NCBI GenBank assembly: GCA_030610945.1
Contig: JAUWQV010000001.1
Location: 25,901-89,900, forward strand
Direction: 5' to 3'
DNA: 64,000 nt
Source of the DNA: Methanocellales archaeon
Lineage (GTDB): Archaea; Halobacteriota; UBA148; JAUWXC01
A program made the position numbers and the translations under genes. Under the pieces are notes generated by a model that did no database searches, was not told the DNA's origin, and saw only the letters and a program-made list of their open reading frames with translations. The stretch's first letter is position 1. The number at the start of each line of letters is the position of its first letter. Below are positions 15,185 to 61,787 of the stretch, one piece after another.

Positions 15185-16281
15185 GCGCAAAAGTGAAAAC
15201 AAGAGAAAAAGATGAACTGACAAAGAAAAAACTGCTCGACCTCATAAAAGAGTTTTACGGCCAATTACAGAGTGAGCAGGTTCCGTACCTCAATCTGCCG
15301 ACCAGGACAAAAGCCAATATTGAGTATAATGATGTATCAGAGGTGTGGGTTTACGGCAGCAGAGAGAGCATGAGGAGTGCAAAAACCGTTAGGGGTGCAT
15401 ACCAGTTACTCAAAACCTCGTATGTAGTAGATTTTCTGAATGCCCAGTTAGACCAGTCAAAATCTTCCACGTTGAGAGAGCTGTACTATATCTCCGAGAA
15501 CTGGGATTTGGCAAAATTCAGGGAACAGCAGGAAAGCGACAGGCTGATTGAAGACCTAGAAATCGTGAGCGAATTGCAAAGGGAGAACTTCCATATCAGG
15601 CCAGAGGAGGATGGCGCCTCTATCATAGGCCCCATTAAAATCAAGGAGCAGACGAGAAGGGGCACAAAAGTAATCCATTGCCAGGATGATGTCGGCGATG
15701 CCGGATACCAGATCCCAAATAATGTTAATAATATAGAGTTCTTGGAGCACGATGCAAAAATGATAGTGGCGATAGAGACTGGTGGTATGAAGGACAGGTT
15801 GATTGAGAACGGCTTTGATGAAAAGTTTAACGCAATTATCGTGCACCTGAAAGGCCAGCCGGCCAGAAGCACACGACGGTTGCTCAAACGGATGAATGAA
15901 GAGTTGAAGATTCCGGTAGTAGTATTCACCGATGCGGACCCGTGGTCCTATAGGATATTCGCCTCCGTGGCGTATGGGGCAATTAAGAGTGCTCACCTAT
16001 CAGAATACATGGCAACTCCTGCAGCGCAGTTCATCGGCATTAGCCCTTCGGACATAGTCAGCTACGAATTACCGACCGATAAGTTGTCTGACCAGGACAT
16101 AAAGGCACTGCACTCGATGCTCTCTGACCCGAGATTCAAAACGGAGTTCTGGGAGAATGAGATTAACCTACAACTTGAGTTAAACAAGAAGAGCGAGCAA
16201 CAGTCACTGGCAAAGTATGGACTGGATTACGTGACGGACAAATATCTGCCAGAGCGCCTGACTGAGATGGGCGTAATTTAG
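15181..16281 (+). CDS. top6A: DNA topoisomerase VI subunit A (Spo11-like)
   Basis: 366 aa. Winged-helix and Toprim-like regions. Start is translationally coupled to top6B. Confidence 0.9.
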
Positions 16282-49148: not shown

Positions 49149-49571
49149 ATGGAACAAGAACTGATGAGAATAGGTGTATCGCTTCCTGCGAATTTGCTGA
49201 GCCGCTTTGACACTATCATCGCGCAACGCGGGTATTCCTCCCGATCAGAAGGAATAAGAGACGCGATCAGAGACTACATCGTAGATTATGAATGGCTGAG
49301 TGGGGAGAAGGGCGAGAAGGTCGGTGTGATAACGCTCATCTACAACCACCACCAGCGTGGCCTGACTGACAGGCTTACAGATCTACAACATGAATCTTTG
49401 AAATTGATAGAGTCATCGCTTCATGTTCATCTGGACCACGACCATTGTATGGAAGTCGTGCTGGTCAGAGGCGATGCAAAGGATATCAAAACCCTCGTGG
49501 AAAAGATGATGGCGCAGAAGGGCATGAAGCACGTGAAATTGACGATTACTTCACCAGGAGAGGGATTGTAG
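49149..49571 (+). CDS. nikR: Nickel-responsive transcriptional regulator NikR
   Basis: N-terminal RHH domain (SLPANLLSRFDTIIAQRGYSSRSEGIRDAIR) and C-terminal ACT-like domain with HxxxxxxxxHxH-type His/Cys ligands (HHQRG...HVHLDHDHC). Confidence 0.85.
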   Translation: MEQELMRIGVSLPANLLSRFDTIIAQRGYSSRSEGIRDAIRDYIVDYEWLSGEKGEKVGVITLIYNHHQRGLTDRLTDLQHESLKLIESSLHVHLDHDHCMEVVLVRGDAKDIKTLVEKMMAQKGMKHVKLTITSPGEGL

Positions 49572-49970
49572 GCCGCACGATTTGGCGTGTTCTTCGAGTT
49601 TGCGCTTATTACTACTGTAAAACAGATGGCCCTCACAATCACAGTCACTTGAGCCAAAGCCTTTTATGGAGTTGAAATGGGCAGCCAGATTTTTTGCGAT
49701 ATCGCACTCCTTTCTCTCGCTGCCCTCAACGTAAAAGATTTTCTTGACCATTGCGTGTGCAAGCAGATAATCGATGTGCCAGTAAAGCTTTTTCTCTGTT
49801 CTCAGGTGCCGCGCTATCCTCGCCTCCAATCCGTTCAGGGCAGAGCCGACATATGCATAAAAGCCGGCGTGAAATTTTATTTTTCCCAGCCTACCAACTT
49901 GAATGTCCATGCTCTTGGGAAGTTCTATGAGTAAGACGTATGTACCCTTTTTATAATTCGCCACATCCAA
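49551..49970 (-). CDS. DUF123/COG1833 GIY-YIG-like (Uri superfamily) endonuclease
   Basis: YVLLIEL...FHAGFYAYVGSA core is typical of DUF123. C-terminal Cys cluster (CDCEGH). Confidence 0.6.
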   Translation of the reverse strand: MDVANYKKGTYVLLIELPKSMDIQVGRLGKIKFHAGFYAYVGSALNGLEARIARHLRTEKKLYWHIDYLLAHAMVKKIFYVEGSERKECDIAKNLAAHFNSIKGFGSSDCDCEGHLFYSSNKRKLEEHAKSCGLQSLSW

Positions 49971-50861: not shown

Positions 50862-51296
50862 TCACACCTTGCCCTCGAGCCAGCCAATTTTAACGCCAAT
50901 TTTCCGATCAAACTCCGGAACATGTGGCTTGATATCCAAGAGCGGTGTGCCGTCAAGCATGTCAACACCTCTTACCCGCAGGATGTTCCCATTACATTCC
51001 AACAGCTCCACGATGGTGAGTCCTATCGGGTTTGGTCTGCTAGGGGACCTTGTAGCAAAAAGGCCACGTAAATTTTCATCCAAAAAAGGCCTCACGAGAA
51101 GTGAATATCCCTTGGATTTATTGAACAGATATAAGATTATAAGGTGAGAAAAACCTTCGATATCTTTCAACCCTTTCTCGTACTCTTTGAAAACCTCGAT
51201 CTCACCAATTTCCTCTGATTTATATGCTTGATAAGGCGCCTCTCCATCGCTCTTGTAGGGTGTGTGTATTATTCCTATTGATTTTAATTCCTTCAT
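50862..51296 (-). CDS. TrmO/TsaA (YaeB)-like tRNA methyltransferase domain protein
   Basis: The N-terminus IGIIHTPY... and the ~145 aa size match the TsaA N-terminal beta-barrel domain. Confidence 0.6.
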   Translation of the reverse strand: MKELKSIGIIHTPYKSDGEAPYQAYKSEEIGEIEVFKEYEKGLKDIEGFSHLIILYLFNKSKGYSLLVRPFLDENLRGLFATRSPSRPNPIGLTIVELLECNGNILRVRGVDMLDGTPLLDIKPHVPEFDRKIGVKIGWLEGKV

Positions 51297-51419: not shown

Positions 51420-52001
51420 TCACTTTTCCATTCCAAACTTCCTTCGGTAATACTTTGAGTAGATTGCCCCTGCAGGATTATGCGCCAGCACCCTGTCTTT
51501 CACGATAAACGTCGTCACTGGCGCCTCTGAATGTTTTGAAAACAGAATATCATGTCCAAGACACAAGCCGCAGATTATATTCAAATCCGTATCCTTCTCG
51601 TTCAACGCCATCGCCTGCCCTATTGGATTGCACATCGCCTCGTATCTATCATCTTTTATCTTCTCCAGGCCGAAATCCTCCTTGTCGATCCCGCAGATTT
51701 TGCAGCAAACAGAGTAAACCTCAAAGTCCCTTTCCAAGATTTCATGCAATACTCTGGCTTCTGACTCCAATCCAATACAGAATGCGATCCCAAGCGTTTT
51801 GTAGCCCATGTCCTTACAAAACGCCATCAATTCCTCCAGCCGCGTGAGTTCCATGTAGTGTCTTGCCTCAAGATTTGCCGCAGTAGCCATTATCTTTAGG
51901 TTCTCATCTTCGGCTTTGTAAGTACCCACAACTTTTTCTTTGATGGTAGTGCAATTCTTCCCTTGATAGCATTTCTTTTCATCACATAGAGCGCATTTCA
52001 T
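51420..52001 (-). CDS. DUF1847-like Cys-rich metal-binding protein
   Basis: 193 aa with multiple Cys pairs (CALCDEKKC, CCKIC, CGLCLGH). Confidence 0.45.
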   Translation of the reverse strand: MKCALCDEKKCYQGKNCTTIKEKVVGTYKAEDENLKIMATAANLEARHYMELTRLEELMAFCKDMGYKTLGIAFCIGLESEARVLHEILERDFEVYSVCCKICGIDKEDFGLEKIKDDRYEAMCNPIGQAMALNEKDTDLNIICGLCLGHDILFSKHSEAPVTTFIVKDRVLAHNPAGAIYSKYYRRKFGMEK

Positions 52002-52998
52002 CTTTACTCACCACAAAATACGTTTGGTTTTTATGCATCTTTTTCACAACCCGCCTGTCATCTACCAACACCCCTAGATATTTTACAACCTCATTTCGAT
52101 GAATCCCCAACACATTCGAGATGTCCTCTACCGTGCATGGCCTTCGTTCTAAAAGCGTTAATATACTCTTCTCTACACCTTTTTCATACGCCTTCATCGC
52201 TTTTCTGGCATGCGGCGTGATTATCTCCGCTTTTTTGCCAAACATCTTACATATCTTTCGCATCTGATTGGCATCAACGGGCATGGCAAAAGATTCGCAT
52301 GGCGGACGTACAACCGTGTTCAACTGAATTTTGTCAGGATTTATTTCATTAATGATGCCTGCCATTTGTTCTATCTCGCCCACACCATCATTTACCCCTT
52401 TTACCAGCATGACCTCCAGCCAAATCTCGTTGTCAAACTCTTTTCTGAACTTTTTTAATCCGTCAATAATATTTTCTATCCTCAAGCCATTATGCGGCCT
52501 GTTCACCCTCACAAAGACATCCTGCGTCACAGCATCCAGAGAAGGGAGAACTAAATCAGCACGCCTTAATTCATCCCGCACCCGTTTCTTGAAGAGCAAT
52601 GAGCCATTCGTTAAAACCGCGACCGGGATATCGGTCATTCGCTTAACCTCCTGGACCATTTCGCCAATTTTTGAGTTCAAGGTCGGCTCACCAGAGCCAG
52701 AAAATGTGATGTAATCTACTTTGTCATGATCTTCGGTGAGATAACTTTTTAGCTCACTTATAATCACCTGCTTGGAAACATATTCTCTTCTCTGTATCGT
52801 CTTATTCGTCGTTTGTCCCAACTGACAGTACACGCAGTCAAAAGAGCACGTCTTGTATGGAACGATATCCAGCCCTAAGGAAAAGCCCAATCGTCGGGAC
52901 GGCACCGGTCCAAAGACATGGTGTTGATTCATGATCTCAAACCTCCTTGCTCCATCCTGCTCCGTTCGTCTCGAAAGCATCTGGGAATCGCCGCGCAA
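51982..52998 (-). CDS. Radical SAM protein (CxxxCxYC), unknown function, C-terminal wHTH-like tail
   Basis: FGPVPSRRLGFSLGLDIVPYKTCSFDCVYCQLG. 338 aa. First listed Met may be upstream of the true start. Confidence 0.65.
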   Translation of the reverse strand: MRGDSQMLSRRTEQDGARRFEIMNQHHVFGPVPSRRLGFSLGLDIVPYKTCSFDCVYCQLGQTTNKTIQRREYVSKQVIISELKSYLTEDHDKVDYITFSGSGEPTLNSKIGEMVQEVKRMTDIPVAVLTNGSLLFKKRVRDELRRADLVLPSLDAVTQDVFVRVNRPHNGLRIENIIDGLKKFRKEFDNEIWLEVMLVKGVNDGVGEIEQMAGIINEINPDKIQLNTVVRPPCESFAMPVDANQMRKICKMFGKKAEIITPHARKAMKAYEKGVEKSILTLLERRPCTVEDISNVLGIHRNEVVKYLGVLVDDRRVVKKMHKNQTYFVVSKDEMRSM

Positions 52999-53590
52999 TT
53001 TCTGATTTATGTATGGTACAATGACATGGGACCAAGAGAGGTATGTCCTTCAGTAAATCATAATCATCAAATCCATGAAACCCTCCAATCACGCCATACA
53101 CAGGTCCAAGCGATGATGCGTTATTCAAAATTATGGATAGCCCAGGATGGGCGCAGCCTGTTATTACAATTATGCCTTTTTTCGTCTCGAGAAGGAGAGA
53201 TTGCTCTTGTATACCCGTCCCAAGCACGCCCGTCGTATAAGCACGGTCGCATATTTTTGCGGGTCCATCAACCTCAACCAACCTGGCCCTTGATGTAATT
53301 TCATCTTTCAAGCGCTTTGAGAATGACGATGGCACGTATACATCAACATCTGGATTCACATCCAGCAACCGCGCCAGTCCGCCAATGTGGTCCCAATGGT
53401 CGTGCGACAACACGACGATGTCGATGTCCCTGGGATTGATGCCCAGCGCCTTCAAATTGAACAGCAATATTGTACCATCCCAGCCCGTGTCAAACAAAAC
53501 TTTTTTCTCATTCTCAACGAGGCAAGAAAACCCCCAGCCAGATTTCAAGTTTAGGGGCGCTTCATTATCGTAAATTACTGCAATCCTCAT
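52937..53590 (-). CDS. MBL-fold metallo-hydrolase
   Basis: HDHWDHIGG motif. 217 aa. Confidence 0.75.
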   Translation of the reverse strand: MRIAVIYDNEAPLNLKSGWGFSCLVENEKKVLFDTGWDGTILLFNLKALGINPRDIDIVVLSHDHWDHIGGLARLLDVNPDVDVYVPSSFSKRLKDEITSRARLVEVDGPAKICDRAYTTGVLGTGIQEQSLLLETKKGIIVITGCAHPGLSIILNNASSLGPVYGVIGGFHGFDDYDLLKDIPLLVPCHCTIHKSEIARRFPDAFETNGAGWSKEV

Positions 53591-54442
53591 TTAAACACCA
53601 ATACAGAACAGTATCAATCCCACAACCAAGCCAAATGCGACGTTGAAGGCTTTAACATAAAACGTGTCCTTAATAGAGTAAGAAAGCAGGGGCAGCAAGC
53701 CGTGACCATCCTGAACTATAGAACTGACAAGCAGGACGGAAAAAGGAGCGAGCCCATGGAAGTACAACAAAAGGAATATTAAGTGTGGTCCTGACTCGGG
53801 GATGATTCCGACCAGGGCAGCCAAAATAATCAATAATAGTGTATTTTGCGGCATAATCGTCGCTAAGTCAAATTTGAACAGGATAAGCTGGAGTGCAAGC
53901 ATGGTGAAAAACAGCCATAGGAACAGTCGTGGCAGATGTCTTTTAATGATATGATTGTAGACATGCTCTTTAAGAAAATGTTTAATGCTCAGCTCTTCTT
54001 CTTCATGAATCTCGATCTCACAGGGCTGGCAGGTCTTCAATTTGACCTTTCTGGCGACCCAATCAGCCAAGTAACCGGCAATTATTCCCAGTACCAAGCA
54101 GATGGCAAATATCAATAAAGCTGTTCTCGGCATCATGGCCAGCATCACAAATGCCCCATCTCCAGCAGTAGCGATCATCACCGCTACTAGGGCACCGAAA
54201 CCAACCAGGCCATGAACGTACAGGGAAACTATGAAGAAGGCGTCAACACAACCGGGCACCACTCCAAGGAAGGAGGAGATCACATACTGGTTTGAGGGTT
54301 TTCTAGTAATCTTTTCTCGGATCTTATCTTTAAACCTTAACTCCAAGTACTCGGTCAATATCATCAACGCTAAAACTATCAAAAGTATCTTTAGGGTCCC
54401 GAGAAGGATTTCTGAAATGAGCGTTTGAAGCATGTGTTTCAC
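53591..54442 (-). CDS. Polytopic membrane protein, putative permease (unassigned family)
   Basis: 283 aa and about 8 TM, with two-repeat architecture and conserved GDG and PESGPH motifs. Confidence 0.4.
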   Translation of the reverse strand: MKHMLQTLISEILLGTLKILLIVLALMILTEYLELRFKDKIREKITRKPSNQYVISSFLGVVPGCVDAFFIVSLYVHGLVGFGALVAVMIATAGDGAFVMLAMMPRTALLIFAICLVLGIIAGYLADWVARKVKLKTCQPCEIEIHEEEELSIKHFLKEHVYNHIIKRHLPRLFLWLFFTMLALQLILFKFDLATIMPQNTLLLIILAALVGIIPESGPHLIFLLLYFHGLAPFSVLLVSSIVQDGHGLLPLLSYSIKDTFYVKAFNVAFGLVVGLILFCIGV

Positions 54443-55296
54443 TCCAAAGCACGTGTTATATTATTCCACATTTCCCCTATCTTTCTTGAAACTTCCCCAT
54501 CGGAGAATTCAACTACGGGCTTCCCGGCGACCATGGCCTCCGTGACAATTGGATCGTATGGAATTTTACTTATCACATTCACGCCACTTTTTCGACAGGA
54601 CTCGACTATCTGATTGGTATTTTCCTCGTTGATATCATATTTATTAATACAGACTAAAGAGGCTATGCCAAAATGGCGAGTTAGTCCTAAAATCCTTTCC
54701 AGATCATGCAAACCCGACATCGTTGGTTCGGTGACGATTAGCGCCATATCAACTCCAGCAAGGGACGCTATCACAGGACAGCCTATGCCAGGCGGACCGT
54801 CTATCAAGATTAGCTCTCTTCCCTGCTCCTCGGCCATTTTTCGTGCCTTATTTCTGACAAGAGCGACCAATTTTCCAGATGCTTCTTCAGCGATGCTCAA
54901 TCTGGCGTGGACCATTGGACCGTACTTGGTTTCAGAAATAAATGCATATCCAGAAATCTTTTCCCTGAGCATTATGGCGTTCTCAGGGCAGACGTATGCG
55001 CATACGCCGCAGCCCTCGCATAAAATGGGGTCTATCGTGTGACCGCGTATTGCGCCGAACTTACACGCCTTCTCACATCTCCCGCAATCTATGCACTTTT
55101 CTTCATCTACCACTGCTTCCTTCGAGCCCTTAAACTCCTCTTTTTCCTTCAGACGTGCCTCGAAAAGCAGATGGAGATTCGGTGCATCCACATCACAGTC
55201 TGCTATAACATGGTTGTGCGCCAACACAGTAAAGGATGCAACGATGATCGTTTTTCCGGTTCCGCCTTTTCCGCTTATGACGACCAGCTGCTTCAC
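54439..55296 (-). CDS. MinD/CooC-like P-loop ATPase with inserted 2x[4Fe-4S] ferredoxin domain (COG1149)
   Basis: Deviant Walker A GKGGTGKT plus CIDCGRCEKAC...CEGCGVCAYVCP. Confidence 0.8.
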   Translation of the reverse strand: MKQLVVISGKGGTGKTIIVASFTVLAHNHVIADCDVDAPNLHLLFEARLKEKEEFKGSKEAVVDEEKCIDCGRCEKACKFGAIRGHTIDPILCEGCGVCAYVCPENAIMLREKISGYAFISETKYGPMVHARLSIAEEASGKLVALVRNKARKMAEEQGRELILIDGPPGIGCPVIASLAGVDMALIVTEPTMSGLHDLERILGLTRHFGIASLVCINKYDINEENTNQIVESCRKSGVNVISKIPYDPIVTEAMVAGKPVVEFSDGEVSRKIGEMWNNITRALE

Positions 55297-56132
55297 TGAC
55301 TGTTCACCACACTTTTTATGTGCTCAAAAACACCTGAGAATTTTTCTTTCCATTCTGGCATCTTCAAGACAAACGGTACGCCGCGTGAGTATAGCTCTGC
55401 AATCTTTCTATCCATGGGAATTGTGAGCAAGATTGAAATGCCCTCTTCGCTGCAGTACTCCTGGACTTTGTGGTCTCCGATTCCCTCGCGGTTTATTATA
55501 ACTCCAAACGGGATTTCCATTTTCCTCAGCACTTCTACAGCCAATTTAAGGTCATGCAAACCAAAGGGCGTTGGCTCGGTTACAAGTATGCAGTAATCGC
55601 TTCCATGCACAGCCGCTATCACGGGGCAAGATGTCCCAGGTGAAGCATCGATGATTACAGTTTTATCGTTATCGATCTCATTCTTTACCCCCCTTACCAC
55701 CGGAATTGCCATGAGTTCGCCTATGTTGAGCTCACCATACACGAATTCGATGTCCCCTGCCTCCCCCTTTTTGACCACACCAACTTCTCTATCTTCTTCA
55801 GCAATTGCATTTTTGGGGCAAACGATCGAGCAGCCACCACATCCGTGACAGAGTTCCGGGAACACCATGATCTTGTTCTTGAGCACAGCAAGTGCGTTAA
55901 ACTCACAGAATTCAGCACATTTTCCGCAGTAGTCACACCTGGTTTCGTCGACCGTTGGTACTGCTATGTAGACTAACATCTGCTTTTGGATCTCTGGCTG
56001 CAAGAAGATATGTGCGTTCGGCTCTTCGACATCGCAGTCCAAGAGTTGAACATTTGTGAGAGACAGTGCCATGTTTGTGGCTATGGTGGTTTTTCCCGTG
56101 CCGCCCTTGCCACTTGCTATGGAGATTATCAT
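55293..56132 (-). CDS. MinD/CooC-like P-loop ATPase with inserted ferredoxin domain (COG1149), paralogue
   Basis: GKGGTGKTT plus CDYCGKCAEFC...CHGCGGCSIVCP. Confidence 0.8.
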   Translation of the reverse strand: MIISIASGKGGTGKTTIATNMALSLTNVQLLDCDVEEPNAHIFLQPEIQKQMLVYIAVPTVDETRCDYCGKCAEFCEFNALAVLKNKIMVFPELCHGCGGCSIVCPKNAIAEEDREVGVVKKGEAGDIEFVYGELNIGELMAIPVVRGVKNEIDNDKTVIIDASPGTSCPVIAAVHGSDYCILVTEPTPFGLHDLKLAVEVLRKMEIPFGVIINREGIGDHKVQEYCSEEGISILLTIPMDRKIAELYSRGVPFVLKMPEWKEKFSGVFEHIKSVVNSQ

Positions 56133-56141
56133 TAGTAGCCC

Positions 56142-56513
56142 TTATCTCACTAATTCTGTGTTGTGTTCTTTACAGGCATTTTCGTCAGTAGCCACTTGAA
56201 GCTTTCCAGACTTCCAAGCATTGATCGCATCCTTCACAGTTCCATTAGCGCCTACAAAGACCTCGATGCCAAATTGCTCGAACATCTGGATTGCCCTCGG
56301 ACCTAAACCAGAACAGAGCATCACATGCACGCCTTTTCTTGCTATCAGTTCAGGTGGAAGCCCTGTGCCACCCATATGCTCGCTCGTATTTGGAAAAACC
56401 TCTACCTCGTTGGTCTCCGTATCCACCAGCGTATAATATAGGCATCTTCCGAAGTGTGGAGATACCACATCGTCCATACCACTTTGCCCTATTGTTGGTA
56501 CACATACCTTCAT
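56142..56513 (-). CDS. NifX/NifB-C-like dinitrogenase FeMo-cofactor-binding-domain protein (COG1433)
   Basis: MKVCVPT...SPHFGRC...GVHVMLCSGLGPRA is a hallmark of the PF02579 fold. I prefer the internal ATG start, so that it clears the upstream Zn-ribbon gene. Confidence 0.7.
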   Translation of the reverse strand: MKVCVPTIGQSGMDDVVSPHFGRCLYYTLVDTETNEVEVFPNTSEHMGGTGLPPELIARKGVHVMLCSGLGPRAIQMFEQFGIEVFVGANGTVKDAINAWKSGKLQVATDENACKEHNTELVR

Positions 56514-56530
56514 ACTATCACCTATCGATC

Positions 56531-56686
56531 TCATTTTTCCCTGACCATTTTGCTTCCACATTTCGGGCAAGTTTGATCAAAGCATGGCGTCCCTGCAATA
56601 TGCGGGGTTTTATGTCCACAATTTGGACATACACAGTTACCACCAGGGCCTAAACCAGAACCGCCCATTCTCTTTTGTCCAGCCAT
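56531..56686 (-). CDS. Zn-ribbon mini-protein with Gly/Pro-rich N-terminus
   Basis: Below the ORF cutoff. Manual translation: MAGQKRMGGSGLGPGGNCVCPNCGHKTPHIAGTPCFDQTCPKCGSKMVREK. The N-terminus resembles the DUF5320 N-terminal motif. Confidence 0.5.
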   Translation of the reverse strand: MAGQKRMGGSGLGPGGNCVCPNCGHKTPHIAGTPCFDQTCPKCGSKMVREK

Positions 56687-56705
56687 TATATCTACCTCAT
56701 GCCAA

Positions 56706-57284
56706 CTATTTTCTAAGTTCTGCCAGTCTCTTCTTGAGTTGATCCAATTGCTGTTCTAATGTCTTTACCTGAGTTTCCAGCATCTGCAGTTCTTGCTCTT
56801 TAGGCACCTGAGACGTTGGCATTGGTGGCATTATTGGAGCGGTTGTAGGCGCCTGCTGCATGAGCCCCATGCTCATCCCCCGGCCACCTCCACGTCTCCT
56901 GCCCCCGCCCATTCCCATGCCGCCAAACATTGGCGCTGTTGCCGTGGTAATCGGAGAGAGTTCGCCTTCCAAGTATTTTGTCACTGCATCTCTCACGCTA
57001 ATCCCCTGTACGGATATCATCTCAATGCCAACTTGATTCAAAACCATGGATGCGTTGGGACCATAATTGCCGGCTATCACCGCCTTTGCGCCTTGACTGA
57101 CGATTGACTGGGCTGCCTGGATTCCAGCGCCGCCCGTTGCACCTGCATATTGATTTTGAATTACCGAGCTATTCTTGATTTTCTTTCCTTCAACATCTAC
57201 GACCGTAAACGTCGGGCATCTTCCAAACACCGGGGATACTGTATCGTCCAAACCCCCTGCGGTTGTTGCAACTACTATTTTCAT
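56706..57284 (-). CDS. NifX-like domain fused to a Gly/Met/Arg-rich linker and DUF5320-like C-terminal coiled coil
   Basis: N-terminus MKIVVATTAGGLDDTVSPVFGRCP (NifX fold). C-terminus ...LETQVKTLEQQLDQLKKRLAELRK, as in DUF5320. Confidence 0.65.
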   Translation of the reverse strand: MKIVVATTAGGLDDTVSPVFGRCPTFTVVDVEGKKIKNSSVIQNQYAGATGGAGIQAAQSIVSQGAKAVIAGNYGPNASMVLNQVGIEMISVQGISVRDAVTKYLEGELSPITTATAPMFGGMGMGGGRRRGGGRGMSMGLMQQAPTTAPIMPPMPTSQVPKEQELQMLETQVKTLEQQLDQLKKRLAELRK

Positions 57285-57453
57285 TTTTTCACCTCATTTT
57301 TTGAAGCTCTTTGAGCCGTTTCTTAATTTCTTCTAATTATTGTTCTATTATTTTTGCCTGACTTTCCAATATCTGAATTCTCGTCCTTTTGATATTTGTA
57401 CCAGCGGCATGCCAGTTGGTACTGATATCCCTGCTGCTTGGGGCGTGACCTGA

Positions 57454-57470
57454 CTCATATAAAATATGAG
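57454..57470. promoter_or_regulatory. Inverted repeat CTCATAT-aaa-ATATGAG in a 240-nt intergenic gap inside the cluster
   Basis: Exact 7-bp arms, seen in sequence. AT-rich and TATA-like. About 170 nt upstream of the NifX-DUF5320 gene. Confidence 0.35.
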
Positions 57471-57525
57471 CTACCCTGTATTTAACCTCTGTAGACTGTT
57501 TGTGACTTTGTAAAGGAAATCTCTT

Positions 57526-57888
57526 TTATTTCTTGGAAAGTCCTTCCAGCCTTCCTTTTATAGCTTTGAGTTCTTCTTCCATAGATTTGACCATTTCTTC
57601 AAGATATGTTTTTTCCTCTTCTTTTGTTGGTTCTGGGTACACATAGGGTTGTGTGAGTTCCGGTGTAGGTCCATAATATCTGTGATAGGGTCCTGGATAC
57701 GAGCAATATCCTCGTCTCCAGAATCCTCGACCGAAACCTCTACCTCTAGCGAATCCTCTTCCGAATCCTCGAACAGATGCGTTCGTATATCCCGGCACTG
57801 AATAGCCTATGCAGTATCCTGCTCGCCTACCTGTCATGGGCCCCATGCCCATTGGTCCTGTTCCATCTCCACCTGGCATTCTTTTCAC
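57526..57888 (-). CDS. DUF5320 protein with RGF/RG repeat region
   Basis: MKRMPGGDGTGPMGMGPMTGRRAGYC N-terminal motif, RGFGRGFARGRGFGRGFWRRGY repeat, and C-terminal coiled coil. Confidence 0.65.
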   Translation of the reverse strand: MKRMPGGDGTGPMGMGPMTGRRAGYCIGYSVPGYTNASVRGFGRGFARGRGFGRGFWRRGYCSYPGPYHRYYGPTPELTQPYVYPEPTKEEEKTYLEEMVKSMEEELKAIKGRLEGLSKK

Positions 57889-57891
57889 CTC

Positions 57892-58065
57892 CTATTTTAA
57901 TGAAATCGCAATATTAGGGCAGACATCAACACATGCACCACACTCTGTGCATAGCGCTTCATCAACTGAAGCAATGTCACCGTTCAGTGATATTGCGCCC
58001 CCTGGGCACTCATCAACGCATACCCCACATCCTAAACACTGGTCCACATCAACTTTTGCTGGCAC
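57892..58065 (-). CDS. 2x[4Fe-4S] ferredoxin (probable GTG start)
   Basis: Below the ORF cutoff. Manual translation: (V/M)[28 protein letters not shown]...[19 protein letters not shown]. Coordinates +/-2. Confidence 0.55.
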
Positions 58066-58074
58066 ATTATCACC

Positions 58075-58920
58075 TCACTCTTTTAGCGACGCCTCTATTT
58101 TATCTACGATTCCCATAAACGACTTTGCAGTATGTGAATTGGGCTCTAACATAAGCGGCTCTCCCGCGTCTCCCATCTCACAGACCTTGTAGTCAATTGG
58201 GATGCTCCCAAGGAATGGTACACTTAACTCCTTCGCAGACTCCCCGCCGCCGCCTGTCTTGAATATATCAACAGTATTGCCACAATGAGGACAAACGAAA
58301 CCGCTCATATTTTCTACAATTCCAATCACCGGGATATGAAGCTGCTTCGCGAAGTTAACGGCCCTCCTTGAATCCAATAGCGCAACCTCTTGTGGCGTCG
58401 TTACGATGACTGCATTGCTGTTTGGAATTAATTGTGCAATGCTAAGCGGCTCATCACCTGTCCCAGGTGGCAAATCCACTATCAGATAATCTAGTATGCC
58501 CCATCTTACCTCTTTTGTAAATTGTTCTATAGCCTTCATCCTAAGAGGGGCACGCCATATAATGGGTGAATCTTTTTCCATCAAAAACGCCATAGAAACC
58601 ACCTTGATAGGAGATGCTCCGTCAATTGATGCGAGAACTGGTTCGATGTAGGTGCCATTGCTATACAAGCTACCAGCATCAAGCCCCAGCATTTTTGGAA
58701 CATTTGGCCCAGTTATATCTGCATCAAATAATCCAACATTGTACCCCCTCATTGCGAGACCAAACACCAAGTTAACCGCTACTGTTGTCTTTCCAACGCC
58801 GCCCTTGCCGCTCATCACCATAATGCTATGTTTTATGTCCCATGTGTGTGAGTCTTCGTCTTGGTTGCCCACTAGTTCTTCCGATTTGTGTAATTTAGGT
58901 TTTTCCTCTAACATATCCAC
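58075..58920 (-). CDS. Mrp/NBP35/ApbC-family Fe-S cluster carrier ATPase
   Basis: GKGGVGKTT deviant Walker A, and a CxxC near the centre (CPHC). Confidence 0.8.
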
Positions 58921-58925
58921 ATCTC

Positions 58926-59354
58926 CTAACCTCTCACATAGCCCCTATCTTCAGGGGCCCTGTGAATATTCGCTGAGCTGCACTTGGGGCACTCAACGGG
59001 CCTTCCCGTTCCGTATGATTCTTCCCATTCATTGCCGCAATCATGGCATTTGAATCTCCTCGCTGCCATCTCATAATTGCCTCCATGAATTTTTATTGCC
59101 TTGCCGTTGACCAAAGCGTCTGCGATTTTTTTTCTTGCAGACTCCAAGAGCCTGTGGAGCGTCGGCTGTGAGATAGTCATCTTCTCAGCCGCTTCTTTTT
59201 GTCCCAGTTCCTCTATACTGTTAAGCCTAATTGCCTCGAGTTCGTCAACCGCTAAACTAACTTCTTCCATGTCTGCTAGGGGTATTCCTCTTGGCTTGAA
59301 ATATGTAATCCCGGGTTCAAACCAGACTCGTCTATTCTTTCTGGGCCTGACCAT
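58926..59354 (-). CDS. DUF134 (UPF0251) HTH protein with C-terminal Zn ribbon
   Basis: Sigma-70-region-4-like HTH ([24 protein letters not shown]) plus CHDCG...CPKC. Confidence 0.65.
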
Positions 59355-59406
59355 GTTATGAATATATATTCATAACACATTTAAATGTTTTGCTAAATAT
59401 TTCGCA

Positions 59407-60633
59407 TCATAGAATGAGATTAAGCAAACCACCCACCAGCAAGGCAGAGGTAATCATGATCACAGCGGATTTGGCCATATCCACTACCCCCAGCTCTTTA
59501 GTTAAAACGACAAATGTAGCCACGCATGGAAAATACATCGCCAGTACCACGCTGGCCACTATCGTTTGGGACATCGTCAAACCAAGGGGCAAAAGCATCC
59601 CTATAGCCACATCTTTACGCAGAAAGCCAACTATGAGCGCCCCAACCGCCTCTTCTGGCAGTCCGAGCAGGCCAACCACTATAGGAGCGGTGATTTTGCC
59701 TATGAATTCGATGATCCCCAATATATAAAGAACATTTACGACGAATACGCCCAGCAGCACATACGGAACTGCCTCCCCCAGAAAGAACCGTATTCTCATC
59801 CACAGTTTCTTCAGTAATGCACCCCAATATGGAATCCTATAGGGTGGGACTTCCATGAATATCTCTGGACTCTCGCCCTTCAAAATTTTGTTGAGCAAAA
59901 GTCCAAGGACTATCCATACCATGAAAAGTGTCAAAAAAACGATTCCCAAACCCTTCGCACCATATACTCCTACTAGACCAACTATCATGGCGAGCTGAGC
60001 CATACAAGGAACTGCTATCGCCATAAGAGTTGCAGCGATGAAAACCTGCCTCTTCGTCTCCATGACTCTGGTGGATAGAGCTCCAGGAACGTTGCACCCC
60101 AGGCCGAGCAGGAATGGGATTATGGCTAAGCCATGCAAGCCTATTCTGTGCATTACGCTATCTATCAACACAGCTAATCTTGGCAAATAGCCACTGTCTT
60201 CTAGAAAACCCAGTACCAGATAAAATGCAAAGACATAAGGCAAAACCATTGCAAAAGGAACATAGAGCCCGGTGGTTAGCAAACCCATGGACTGCACATA
60301 ATCTACTTTTCCCTCTATTAGCGTTCCAATCAAAACGTCATGGACAAACCCGGGACCCAGTAGCTCGCTCAATTTCATCACTAGAGGAGCATAAATATCA
60401 AATATCGGCTCGAATACGTAACCGATTAGCCCTTCGCCAACAAATCTTATAAACCCGAAGGTTAGAAGCAGGACCACTATGGCTATGGGAAGACCGGTCA
60501 TGGGCTTAATGCTCGCGTCTCCCATTCTCTCTAAAAAGGTGTGGTGACGATGGGTCACGGTCTGTACCTGACTGACTATTCTGCCAACCGCAGCCCATCT
60601 TTGCTCATCAGTACGTTCATCGTTGACTGGCAT
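59407..60633 (-). CDS. feoB: FeoB C-terminal part (GDI-like segment plus membrane/nucleoside-recognition domains)
   Basis: Polytopic. Start assigned to MPVNDERTDEQRW, which has a GGGGAAAG RBS-like sequence upstream. Overlaps the G-domain ORF by 17 nt in another frame. Confidence 0.7.
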   Translation of the reverse strand: MPVNDERTDEQRWAAVGRIVSQVQTVTHRHHTFLERMGDASIKPMTGLPIAIVVLLLTFGFIRFVGEGLIGYVFEPIFDIYAPLVMKLSELLGPGFVHDVLIGTLIEGKVDYVQSMGLLTTGLYVPFAMVLPYVFAFYLVLGFLEDSGYLPRLAVLIDSVMHRIGLHGLAIIPFLLGLGCNVPGALSTRVMETKRQVFIAATLMAIAVPCMAQLAMIVGLVGVYGAKGLGIVFLTLFMVWIVLGLLLNKILKGESPEIFMEVPPYRIPYWGALLKKLWMRIRFFLGEAVPYVLLGVFVVNVLYILGIIEFIGKITAPIVVGLLGLPEEAVGALIVGFLRKDVAIGMLLPLGLTMSQTIVASVVLAMYFPCVATFVVLTKELGVVDMAKSAVIMITSALLVGGLLNLIL

Positions 60634-61132
60634 CTTTCCCCCTGGCCACTGTACAAAGCATAGCCTCTGACAACTTGGAGACAAGTTCTTTGACCCCTTC
60701 GCCAGTAATGGCAACCGTCGGCACTACTGGAACACCTAAAAGTTCTTCAAGTTTTTCCACGTCGATGATGATGCCTTTGTGCTTTGCCTCGTCCCACATG
60801 TTAAGCGCTATGATTGCTGGTGTTTTCCTTTCCAGTAGTTGAAGCGCCAGGTATAAACTCCTCTCCAGATTTGTAGCATCCACCACATTGACAACCAAAT
60901 CTCCCTTTTTCAGCATCTCGACAGCCACTTCCTCTGCCTTGGAGAACGGTTCCAGAGTGTACGTCCCAGGTACGTCGATTACTTCTGTCCACTTATTCCC
61001 AAGCTTCATTGTGCCCTTCTTGAACTCAACAGTAGTACCAGGATAGTTTGAAACTATGACATTTACTCCTGTTAGCCGGGAGAATATGGCACTCTTCCCC
61101 ACGTTGGGGTTTCCCATCAGAAGTATTCTCAC
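60617..61132 (-). CDS. feoB: FeoB N-terminal GTPase domain (separate ORF)
   Basis: G1 GNPNVGKS, G3 DVPG and G4 NMWD. 171 aa, ending at the TGA at 60617. Confidence 0.8.
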   Translation of the reverse strand: MRILLMGNPNVGKSAIFSRLTGVNVIVSNYPGTTVEFKKGTMKLGNKWTEVIDVPGTYTLEPFSKAEEVAVEMLKKGDLVVNVVDATNLERSLYLALQLLERKTPAIIALNMWDEAKHKGIIIDVEKLEELLGVPVVPTVAITGEGVKELVSKLSEAMLCTVARGKDASQR

Positions 61133-61359
61133 CCCTTCACCTCTACAAAGATTTTTGTTGCCATTCCCCTTCCGATTGCGACCCTGGCTCCATCTACTTC
61201 AACGACAATCGGACCCCTAAGGGGCCCAGAAGTTATCTTTCGAACCGTCTTCTCAACTCTGATGCCCAGTGATGCCATACGCCTTTGAAATCCTGTGCCG
61301 CCTTCTAGGTGTTTTACTATTGCAACTTTTCCGATGCCCAGTTCAGTCAATGTGATCAT
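61129..61359 (-). CDS. feoA: FeoA
   Basis: 76 aa SH3-like FeoA. Coupled to feoB. Confidence 0.8.
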   Translation of the reverse strand: MITLTELGIGKVAIVKHLEGGTGFQRRMASLGIRVEKTVRKITSGPLRGPIVVEVDGARVAIGRGMATKIFVEVKG

Positions 61360-61787
61360 AGAAACGTCTCCTTTTTAATACAACATGATGCCCGCGCAAT
61401 TGGATTTCCGTCAGGGCATTGCTGAGGATGTTTCATCAGCGAGCAAAATCGTCGCTCCACATCATCAGATATCACATGCTCCAGCCTGCATGCCTCCTTG
61501 TGTGCGCTATCTTCACCCATCTCCAGAAAATCAACCAGAAATCGTTCCAATAACCTGTGCCTCCGCTTTACTTTCCGGGCAATATTCAGCCCTTTTTTAG
61601 TTAGGGATGCCCCATAGTATGGCCGATAATCTATATATTCTTCCTCAGCCAGCTTCTGTAGCATCTCTGTTACGCTCGCGGGTGCCACCCCCATAAGAGA
61701 TGCAATTTCGGTGGTCTTCGCTGGTTTTCCACCTTCGGTCAAGGTGTGTAACGCCTCAAGATATTCCTCAGGTCGCTCCTCGTTCAT
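61356..61787 (-). CDS. DtxR/MntR-family metal-dependent transcriptional repressor
   Basis: N-terminal HTH and metal-binding helical domain. TATA-like tttatatttttt about 30 nt upstream on the coding strand. Confidence 0.8.
   Translation of the reverse strand: MNEERPEEYLEALHTLTEGGKPAKTTEIASLMGVAPASVTEMLQKLAEEEYIDYRPYYGASLTKKGLNIARKVKRRHRLLERFLVDFLEMGEDSAHKEACRLEHVISDDVERRFCSLMKHPQQCPDGNPIARASCCIKKETFL

Follow-up and report, generated by a model that had tools for sequence, protein, structure and literature searches.

An archaeal gene cluster of the orange protein type that most likely serves iron-sulfur handling

Introduction

A run of thirteen genes occupies positions 51420–59354 on the minus strand of a 64,000-nucleotide stretch of DNA from a Methanocellales archaeon (GenBank assembly GCA_030610945.1, contig JAUWQV010000001.1), which is called the window here. 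An earlier reading of the letters alone, referred to below as the original prediction, had suggested that this run is a complete pathway for an unidentified metal cofactor. We compared the run with related loci and with published systems. Most likely, it is the archaeal form of a cluster known from anaerobes, the partly studied "orange protein" (ORP) cluster, and handles iron-sulfur (Fe-S) clusters.

Gene Content of the Locus

All thirteen open reading frames (ORFs) were found on the minus strand where the original prediction had placed them, and their family assignments held in Pfam and NCBIfam. In the direction of transcription, the run starts with a DUF134 protein (58926–59354; Pfam DUF134, 7.6e-30; weak sigma-70 region 4 and zinc-ribbon matches), which combines a helix-turn-helix domain with a C-terminal CxxC...CxxC ribbon. 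It is followed by an Mrp/NBP35-type Fe-S carrier ATPase with a GKGGVGKT Walker A motif and a CPHC motif (58075–58920; Pfam ParA/NUBPL, 1.2e-94), a 57-aa 2x[4Fe-4S] ferredoxin (57892–58065; Pfam and NCBIfam), and a DUF5320 protein of 120 aa (57526–57888; Pfam DUF5320, 3.5e-31). After a 241-nt intergenic gap (57285–57525) come a NifX-DUF5320 fusion of 192 aa (56706–57284; Pfam Nitro_FeMo-Co, 3.6e-22, and DUF5320, 1.2e-10), a 51-aa Cys4 mini-protein with the pattern CVCPNCG...H...PC...CPKCG (56531–56686), and a single-domain NifX-fold protein of the orange-protein/Orp8 class (56142–56513; Pfam Nitro_FeMo-Co, 1e-21). Then follow MinD-type ATPase A of the Orp3/Orp4 class (55293–56132) and its paralogue ATPase B (54439–55296), both with an inserted 2x[4Fe-4S] ferredoxin domain (Pfam CbiA/ParA and Fer4). 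The last four genes encode an ArsP_2 family permease (53591–54442; Pfam ArsP_2, 2.4e-41; NCBIfam "arsenic efflux protein", arsenic_eff, 138 bits against a cutoff of 100), a metallo-beta-lactamase-fold (MBL) protein (52937–53590; PDB 7DCK, 2.8e-40), a radical SAM enzyme with a C-terminal winged-helix domain (51982–52932; Pfam and NCBIfam), and a Cys-rich DUF1847 protein (51420–52001; Pfam, 1.5e-57).

An independent gene call on the same contig started the radical SAM gene at 52932 (316 aa, without overlap with the MBL gene) and the NifX gene at 56534. The 51-aa Cys4 gene was absent from the automatic gene call of the public contig (L081), and we consider it real because relatives with the same Cys pattern were present in 34 of the 80 related loci described below. 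The nearest named relatives are Methanocellales metagenome-assembled genomes. The minus-strand run goes on through feoAB, dtxR, priL, and PCNA up to the window end, so co-directionality by itself is weak evidence that the genes belong together.

Relationship to the Orange Protein Cluster

The Fe-S binding, complex formation, and regulation of the ORP proteins have been published for Desulfovibrio. In D. vulgaris, Orp3 and Orp4 are MinD-like and carry two [4Fe-4S] ferredoxin motifs each, and Orp5 has a [2Fe-2S]-binding protein as a homologue. The NifX-like Orp8 is a homologue of the D. gigas orange protein, which binds a [S2MoS2CuS2MoS2] cluster. Moreover, Orp9 (MrpORP) is an Mrp protein with a fused NifX-like domain that passes [4Fe-4S] clusters to Orp3 and Orp4 in vitro. 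The expression of the ORP genes is under the control of sigma-54 and the redox sensor OrpR. The view of the original prediction that no biochemical function had been assigned to such genes therefore needs correction, while it was right in that the physiological role is still open.

For each of the five Desulfovibrio ORP protein classes (Orp3, Orp4, Orp5, Orp8, and Orp9), the window has a counterpart or, in the case of Orp5, a probable one. Two paralogous MinD-type ATPases stand side by side, each with a pair of [4Fe-4S] ferredoxin motifs, and there are also an Mrp/NBP35 ATPase, a single-domain NifX-fold protein, and a small Cys-rich protein. The window Mrp has both the deviant Walker A signature GKGGhGK[ST] and the conserved CXXC of the Mrp/NBP35 (ApbC) family. 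Its best NCBIfam model was MrpORP (332 bits over model positions 3–250 of 365, below the cutoff of 450), and its scores were under the equivalog cutoffs of both ApbC and MrpORP. Positions 261–365 of the same model were matched by the two NifX-fold proteins of the window. Unlike Orp9, the window Mrp thus has no fused NifX-like (Di-Nase) domain, which is encoded separately; the fused form stands beside the same neighbors in the Desulfobacterales loci of our set. ApbC, Cfd1-Nbp35, and Ind1 share the Walker A and CXXC motifs and the expected Fe-S scaffold or carrier role with the window Mrp, which, unlike them, is tied by its context to ORP-type proteins.

The single-domain NifX protein matched the PDB entries 1T3V, 1O13, and 2YX6, as well as the D. 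gigas orange protein 2WFB at E = 1.2e-9. NifX, NafY, and the C-terminal domain of NifB are non-covalent carriers of anionic metal-sulfur clusters, namely nitrogenase cofactor precursors, and belong to the same fold family (Pfam Nitro_FeMo-Co). However, there are no nif genes near the window locus, and unlike NifX proper, the window proteins group with uncharacterised COG1433 structural-genomics proteins and the orange protein. The 51-aa Cys4 protein, which is conserved in loci including those of Desulfobacterales, is the probable counterpart of Orp5/Dde_3197 by description. The small Cys-rich Dde_3197 is presumably the [2Fe-2S]-binding homologue of Orp5.

The window ATPases have the fold and the deviant Walker A motif of the SIMIBI ATPases (NifH/BchL, CooC, ATPase-type HypB, and MinD), which suggests that they act as an ATP-dependent dimer. 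Unlike these enzymes, they carry a whole 2x[4Fe-4S] ferredoxin domain after the P-loop region, and no solved structure with this architecture was found in the structure comparison. The AlphaFold2 model of ATPase A had a predicted local distance difference test score (pLDDT) of 82, and MinD, FlhG, ApbC, ATPase-type HypB, Cfd1, and NifH were about equally close to it. Furthermore, both ATPases have a Cys seven residues past the switch II Asp (DASPGTSC and DGPPGIGC) and a DCDV motif after the P-loop; the switch II Cys and DCDV were invariant in an alignment of 12 ATPase A sequences. The cluster-ligand Cys132 of NifH has the same spacing. This pattern may reflect a metal site that bridges the subunits, besides the ferredoxin insert.

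There are also clear differences between the two clusters. The window genes are co-directional, whereas those of Desulfovibrio form two divergent operons. Sigma-54/OrpR control is missing, and no gene for an enhancer-binding protein was found in this archaeal locus, which has a DUF134 gene and a palindrome instead. In addition, the window has DUF5320, the NifX-DUF5320 fusion, the ferredoxin, ArsP_2, MBL, radical SAM, and DUF1847 as extra genes. We consider this, with considerable confidence, to be an ORP-type Fe-S handling locus.

Conservation of the Core in Archaea and Bacteria

A search with ATPase A found more than 8000 homologues at E < 1e-10. A scan with one genome per species, anchored on ATPase A, gave 80 loci with 53–78% identity, and their six-frame ORFs were searched with the window proteins. 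The archaeal loci came from Bathyarchaeia, Methanocellaceae, Methanophagales, Methanosarcina, Methanohalophilus, Methanothrix, and Thorarchaeota, and the bacterial ones from Dehalococcoidia, Omnitrophota, Desulfobacterales, Clostridia, Ignavibacteria, Planctomycetes, and others. The recurrence of the core in anaerobic archaea, as originally proposed, was thus seen, but it is no archaeal speciality since many anaerobic bacterial phyla have it too. The confinement to anaerobes is shared with the Desulfovibrio cluster.

ATPase B adjoined ATPase A in 79 of the 80 loci. Among the 30 loci that have both flanks of 7 kb or more (the full-flank loci), a NifX-domain gene was always present (30/30), followed by Mrp (21), DUF5320 (15), DUF134 (13), the Cys4 mini-protein (12), radical SAM (8), DUF1847 (7), MBL (6), Feo (4), and ArsP_2 (1). 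Radical SAM, MBL, and DUF1847 were each found in 20–27% of these loci, and a small ferredoxin comparable to that of the window was found in 9 of all 80. The order ATPase B-ArsP_2-MBL-radical SAM-DUF1847 was kept in the closest relatives (L001 and L082), with the other half of the cluster shuffled. These results indicated that the gene grouping exceeds chance, and the co-conservation of the core, for which a gene-neighborhood analysis had been proposed as the check, was borne out.

ATPase A is 53–67% identical between Archaea and Bacteria. In Ca. Hecatella orcuttiae (L083/L084, 5175–17512), the whole ORP-type cluster of about 12 kb lies between the ribosomal genes L3-L4-L23 and L2-S19, as if inserted in the operon. 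This placement, together with the cross-domain identity, suggests horizontal transfer of the cluster.

Iron and Fe-S Context

The 206 further co-directional ORFs inside the 80 clusters were scanned against Pfam. The IscU-type scaffold NifU_N was found in 29 of them, ARMT1-like in 15, SAM methyltransferases in 14, DUF364/DUF4213 in 10, FUR in 10, and CGGC in 4, and none of the 25 commonest extra families was one for molybdate, tungstate, or molybdopterin. NifU_N stands directly before ATPase A in L085. In unrelated phyla, Feo and/or DtxR were present in 9 of the 80 loci; the clusters of L082 and L083 have DtxR within them, and L122 repeats the window order DtxR-FeoA-FeoB-DUF134. With NifU_N, Fur, DtxR, and Feo recurring and no family for Mo or W in the top 25, the context speaks for iron and ordinary Fe-S chemistry and not for the unidentified metal cofactor of the original prediction. 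The more general view of that prediction, a metallocluster-handling neighborhood, is supported.

ARMT1-like (DUF89) phosphatases, SAM methyltransferases, DUF364/DUF4213 ("putative heavy-metal chelation"), DUF169, and CGGC genes recur inside the L001–L080 clusters. Together with the radical SAM and MBL proteins, they might make or modify a small molecule.

Proteins annotated as cobyrinic acid a,c-diamide synthase belong to the CbiA/MinD family. In published proteomics of Methanococcus voltae grown on pyrite, Mvol_0689, Mvol_0691, Mvol_0692, and Mvol_0693 were up 2.3–5 fold. Mvol_0689 and Mvol_0693 were described there as induced "IssA-like" proteins, while Mvol_0691 (5.0-fold) and Mvol_0692 (2.6-fold) carry the above annotation with predicted Fe-S motifs in the supplementary table. 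The radical SAM protein Mvol_0698 (4.0-fold), FeoA (211-fold), FeoB (14.7-fold), and DtxR (12-fold) were also up. The discussion of these authors covers the IssA-like proteins only. Judged from the annotations, Mvol_0689–0693 seems to have this NifX-ATPase-ATPase-NifX arrangement as well, and its induction went along with that of Feo and DtxR.

These data bear on two other explanations of the cluster. One is thiomolybdate/tungstate-copper handling, in which the NifX-fold proteins and the Met/Arg-rich segments would bind the Mo(W)-S-Cu clusters of sulfidic habitats, with the radical SAM enzyme and the ATPases serving Mo/W cofactor supply or detoxification. In favor of it, the D. gigas orange protein, to which the window NifX protein is homologous, has a Mo-Cu cluster, and the best NCBIfam matches of the radical SAM enzyme were sub-threshold ones to MoaA and a tungsten-cofactor maturase. 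Moreover, the NifX tails contain about 12% Met, and an SBP_bac_11 binding protein occurs in one locus (L083). However, the 25 commonest extra families have NifU_N, Fur, DtxR, and Feo in place of Mo/W transport or molybdopterin, and the apparent homologous cluster of M. voltae responds to the Fe/S source, which leaves this explanation improbable.

The other, which was the first proposal for the ORP complex, is a MinD-like positioning or cell-division module with Fe-S clusters as redox sensors that tie division to anaerobiosis. The ATPases have the MinD fold, MrpORP is polar, Orp3/4 were reported to have a MinD-like C-terminal amphipathic helix, and the loss of OrpR leads to morphological defects in D. 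vulgaris. On the other hand, MinC, MinE, FtsZ, and Cdv were absent both from the 25 commonest extra families and from three Pfam-annotated neighborhoods. Instead, Fe-S scaffolds, iron regulators, and iron transport recur as partners, and the induction in M. voltae tracks the iron/sulfur source. We give this module just as small a chance, and the ORP-type Fe-S handling locus is retained below.

Gly/Arg-Rich Segments and Comparison With IssA

DUF5320, the mini-protein, the NifX tails, and the DUF134 tails have cationic Gly/Arg-rich segments in common. In the NifX-DUF5320 protein of the window, the Nitro_FeMo-Co domain (residues 13–105 of 192) is followed by the segment GGMGMGGGRRRGGGRG, a Pro-rich stretch, and the coiled coil of the DUF5320 C-terminus. 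The internal segment (residues 106–150) is cationic and rich in Gly, Met, and Arg (27% Gly, pI 11.5), and the protein has few aromatic residues. About 75 of its top 120 relatives share both Pfam domains, and the first 50 tail residues of the relatives had medians of 30% Gly, a net charge of +4, and 12% Met. DUF5320 (PF17253, cutoff 27 bits) scored 108.7 bits in the 120-aa protein and 42.9 bits in the C-terminus of the fusion. The 120-aa type of protein starts with MPxGDxTGPxGxGPMTGRxAGYC, continues with GRGW/GRGF (RGF/RGW) repeats and a stretch rich in P and Y, and ends in a coiled coil. In most loci, the Cys4 mini-protein has an N-terminal MPRGDGTGP motif and a Gly/Arg-rich run, and the window copy is without both. 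In many bacterial copies of DUF134, a Gly/Arg-rich tail follows the Cys4 ribbon. We found no description of this set of glycine/arginine-rich proteins in the literature.

In two loci (L039, 9428–10000, and L046, 342–911), one protein fuses the NifX domain, the Gly/Arg-rich segment, and the Cys4 knuckle of the mini-protein, a functional link between these three parts.

IssA of Pyrococcus furiosus (PF2025), which is mentioned in the MrpORP paper, consists of a NifX-like IPR003731 domain and a cationic Gly-rich disordered tail. Its store of iron and sulfide takes the form of anionic thioferrate, and it is able to rebuild ferredoxin clusters in vitro. The window NifX-DUF5320 protein is alike in its N-terminal NifX-like domain with a following cationic, Gly-rich, probably disordered segment and in its link to iron and sulfide supply. 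Unlike the tail of IssA, the Gly/Arg(/Met)-rich segment of the window protein is internal, with the Pro-rich stretch and the coiled coil after it, and aromatic residues are few; the likeness is one of composition. Furthermore, the window protein sits in a cluster with ATPases, whereas IssA was studied alone. A literal IssA-type C-terminal tail was found in the Thorarchaeota loci L041 and L055. By this analogy, the NifX-DUF5320 protein is treated as one that may work like IssA, not as a member of the IssA family.

DUF134 and a Candidate Operator

DUF134 is likely the transcription regulator of the cluster, although no literature on it as a regulator was found. A perfect 22-bp palindrome with the halves GTTATGAATAT and ATATTCATAAC lies at 59355–59376 and abuts the DUF134 start codon as a candidate operator; it is unique in the window, where 0 were expected by chance. 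A 20-bp palindrome of the type TTATGAGCATATGCTCATAA was present upstream of DUF134 and of cluster genes in both domains. TTATGAATATATATTCATAA and TTATGAGCATATGCTCATAA were taken as the candidate operator sequences for DUF134. The consensus, with the halves TTATGAGCAT and ATGCTCATAA, was found upstream of DUF134 in Zixibacteria, Ignavibacteria, Dehalococcoidia, Desulfobacterales, and archaea.

From 12 sites, a position weight matrix (PWM) was built, which gave 42 hits in 1.16 Mb compared to 2–9 in shuffles. Most of the 30 non-training hits fall no more than 300 nt upstream of a DUF134, DUF5320, NifX-type, or ATPase A gene. The hit density was 8.1 per 100 kb inside the cluster spans and 1.3 outside (p = 2.7e-4 for the non-training sites), and sites were present in 15 of 25 loci with DUF134 compared to 9 of 55 without it (p = 1.4e-4). 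On these sequence patterns, a predicted autoregulation of DUF134 through the palindrome is well indicated and a wider palindrome regulon is suggested, with DUF134 as the putative palindrome-binding protein.

The 241-nt gap is probably a second promoter region. It contains an inverted repeat, CTCATAT-TTT-ATATGAG, at 57454–57470. The arms of this repeat, which flank a TATA-like core, look like the half-sites of the operator with their order swapped, and the repeat received no score with the operator matrix. A regulatory RNA in the gap was rejected, as nothing in Rfam matched at E ≤ 1 and the folding, with a z-score of 0.12, was nothing unusual.

The same gap also divides the run, which leads to a further explanation: two or three unrelated operons (feo/dtxR; DUF134-Mrp-ferredoxin-DUF5320; NifX to the ATPases; ArsP_2-MBL-radical SAM-DUF1847) may lie side by side in a stretch rich in metal genes. 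It gains from priL and PCNA, which are also part of the minus-strand run, from the confinement of ArsP_2 to close relatives, and from DUF1847 genes without ATPases in Methanolobus and Methanobacterium. The NikR/CbiMNQO/ZIP adjacency is likewise absent from the other Methanocellales locus. Yet both halves of the core recur jointly across phyla with shuffled orders, and in other loci the palindrome stands upstream of genes of both halves. Radical SAM, MBL, and DUF1847 are also found beside the ATPase pair far above chance; the pair was present in 9 of 13 DUF1847-anchored loci, some of which are near-duplicates. Separate operons are therefore unlikely, and a single ORP-type core with looser additions is preferred.

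Accessory Genes and Neighboring Genes

The radical SAM gene often lies directly downstream of ATPase B. A DUF1847-anchored metagenome set comprised 13 loci that have both flanks of 6 kb or more, some of them near-duplicates; besides the ATPase pair in 9, it contained radical SAM in 7 and MBL in 7. The DUF1847 gene of Methanolobus stands with MBL, CobW, and CbiX, and that of Methanobacterium stands alone. The AlphaFold2 model of DUF1847 (pLDDT 90) showed a generic alpha/beta fold with conserved cysteines. An apparent DUF1847-radical SAM fusion in L157 was rejected as an ORF-calling artefact in GC-rich DNA.

Only L001 and L082, both close relatives, have ArsP_2 in the same direction as the cluster, and the sole other match, in L054, is on the opposite strand. 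There were no ars genes near the window ArsP_2, the context of which is the Fe-S cluster; a possible arsenic-resistance unit of ArsP_2, MBL, and radical SAM would be one without ars genes.

The conservation counts and the DUF1847 anchoring thus separate the genes into a firm core, accessories that recur but are loosely tied to it, and a single permease confined to one lineage: MBL and radical SAM are recurrent accessory genes, DUF1847 is loosely associated, and ArsP_2 is lineage-specific. That radical SAM, MBL, and DUF1847 recur beside the core supports the gene grouping of the original prediction, as does the recurrence of the core itself. Its complete 13-gene pathway went too far, since the accessories are not obligatory, ArsP_2 is limited to the closest relatives, and DUF1847 also occurs without the ATPases.

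The cluster adjoins FeoAB and DtxR on one side, and NikR, CbiMNQO, and ZIP are nearby on the other, as had been predicted. dtxR, feoA, and a split feoB lie directly upstream (59407–61787, minus strand). The feoB G-domain (171 aa, 60617–61132) and the membrane domain (59407–60714, or 59407–60633 from an ATG at 60633) are separate minus-strand ORFs, and the two halves overlap by about 17 nt if the membrane part begins at this ATG. Since separate N- and C-terminal FeoB ORFs were also seen in L005 and L027, the split is possibly natural and not a frameshift.

The downstream flank contains a TrmO-like gene, ZIP, DUF123 (49551–49970), NikR, and CbiMNQO. The TrmO/TsaA-like gene (50862–51296, minus strand; family match) adjoins DUF1847 in the window and in the four metagenome loci L090, L102, L138, and L166, so the cluster is possibly one gene longer, with the TrmO-like gene as a possible fourteenth member. 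In another Methanocellales genome (L082), DUF123 lies directly after DUF1847 (15412–15804), and the NikR/CbiMNQO/ZIP neighbors are not shared.

Discussion

The most likely function of this locus is the buffering, storage, and trafficking of Fe-S. We think it somewhat probable that the run as a whole is a composite Fe-S homeostasis locus around an archaeal ORP-type core. Its working can be pictured as follows. Mrp/NBP35 would assemble or carry [4Fe-4S] clusters and load the two MinD-type ATPases, whose ferredoxin inserts would hold two clusters each. The ATPases probably pair as A and B and work with the NifX-fold proteins and the Cys4 mini-protein; at the expense of ATP, and with the small ferredoxin as electron source, they would move iron-sulfide species or convert them. 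Anionic iron-sulfide material would be held by the NifX-fold domain and the cationic Gly/Arg-rich segments, as thioferrate is by IssA; the putative holders are NifX-DUF5320 and DUF5320, and in relatives also the mini-protein and DUF134. With iron-sulfide held in this way, the locus would buffer, store, and release Fe-S. DUF134 may govern transcription via the palindrome at its own promoter, and FeoAB and DtxR next door would supply and sense Fe(II). ArsP_2, MBL, radical SAM, DUF1847, and the TrmO-like gene would be accessory. The ligand binding by the Gly/Arg-rich segments and the ATP-coupled mobilization are what we infer, and the storage and mobilization mechanism as described is tentative, with the odds somewhat against it.

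Several points weigh against this interpretation. By the definitions of Vaccaro et al. (2017), IssA proteins have pI ≥9, <5 Cys, and ≥20% Gly in the last 40 residues, and IssX proteins have pI ≥8, <10 Cys, and ≥10% Gly. The window NifX-DUF5320 protein falls within both definitions by its pI of 9.5 and its single Cys and outside both by the Gly content of its last 40 residues, which are a glycine-free coiled coil; among 105 of its relatives, none classed as IssA and 6 as IssX. Thioferrate-like particles form in P. furiosus without IssA, which may detoxify and not store. The Gly/Arg-rich segments are also Met-rich and may bind soft metals instead, and the orange protein itself binds a Mo-Cu cluster. 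The structure comparison gave no preference between a NifH-type electron donor and a MinD/HypB-type chaperone, and the discoverers of the ORP complex still call its role unclear and favor a link to cell division. In an independent 0.81-Mb locus set, the operator PWM gave 6 hits compared to 4–8 in shuffles, without overall enrichment. Only the sites upstream of DUF134 stood out there, the best hit being the exact 20-mer of the window, which in L122 stands 20 nt before the DUF134 gene; it is the first locus set that supports a regulon beyond DUF134 promoters. The Mo-Cu, cell-division, and separate-operon explanations each have some support and each fit the gene context less well than an ORP-type Fe-S locus does.

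A broader and more speculative proposal, which we rather doubt at present, is that the ORP complex and IssA-type thioferrate storage are two faces of one ancient system of anaerobic Bacteria and Archaea. DUF5320, the Cys4 mini-protein, and the tailed NifX proteins would scaffold an anionic iron-sulfide polymer, the ferredoxin-bearing MinD heterodimer would load it or reductively unload it into [4Fe-4S] clusters for Mrp and IscU, and DUF134 would sense the pool and control the regulon via the 20-bp palindrome.

The ORP core was already known and partly characterized in Desulfovibrio, while the palindrome, the shared Gly/Arg-rich segments, and the link to M. voltae are new here. The predicted DUF134-palindrome pair, the predicted Gly/Arg-rich ligand-binding module, and the M. 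voltae proteomics, of which the link has so far been unremarked, are testable handles. Related clusters are also present in assemblies of Methanosarcina and Methanohalophilus, both genera with cultured members. Anaerobes have very many Fe-S proteins, and little is known of how iron and sulfide are stored and distributed in them; the ORP-type ATPase is widespread in both domains. If the storage and mobilization mechanism is true, the cluster would provide a ferritin-like function for sulfidic, oxygen-free life.

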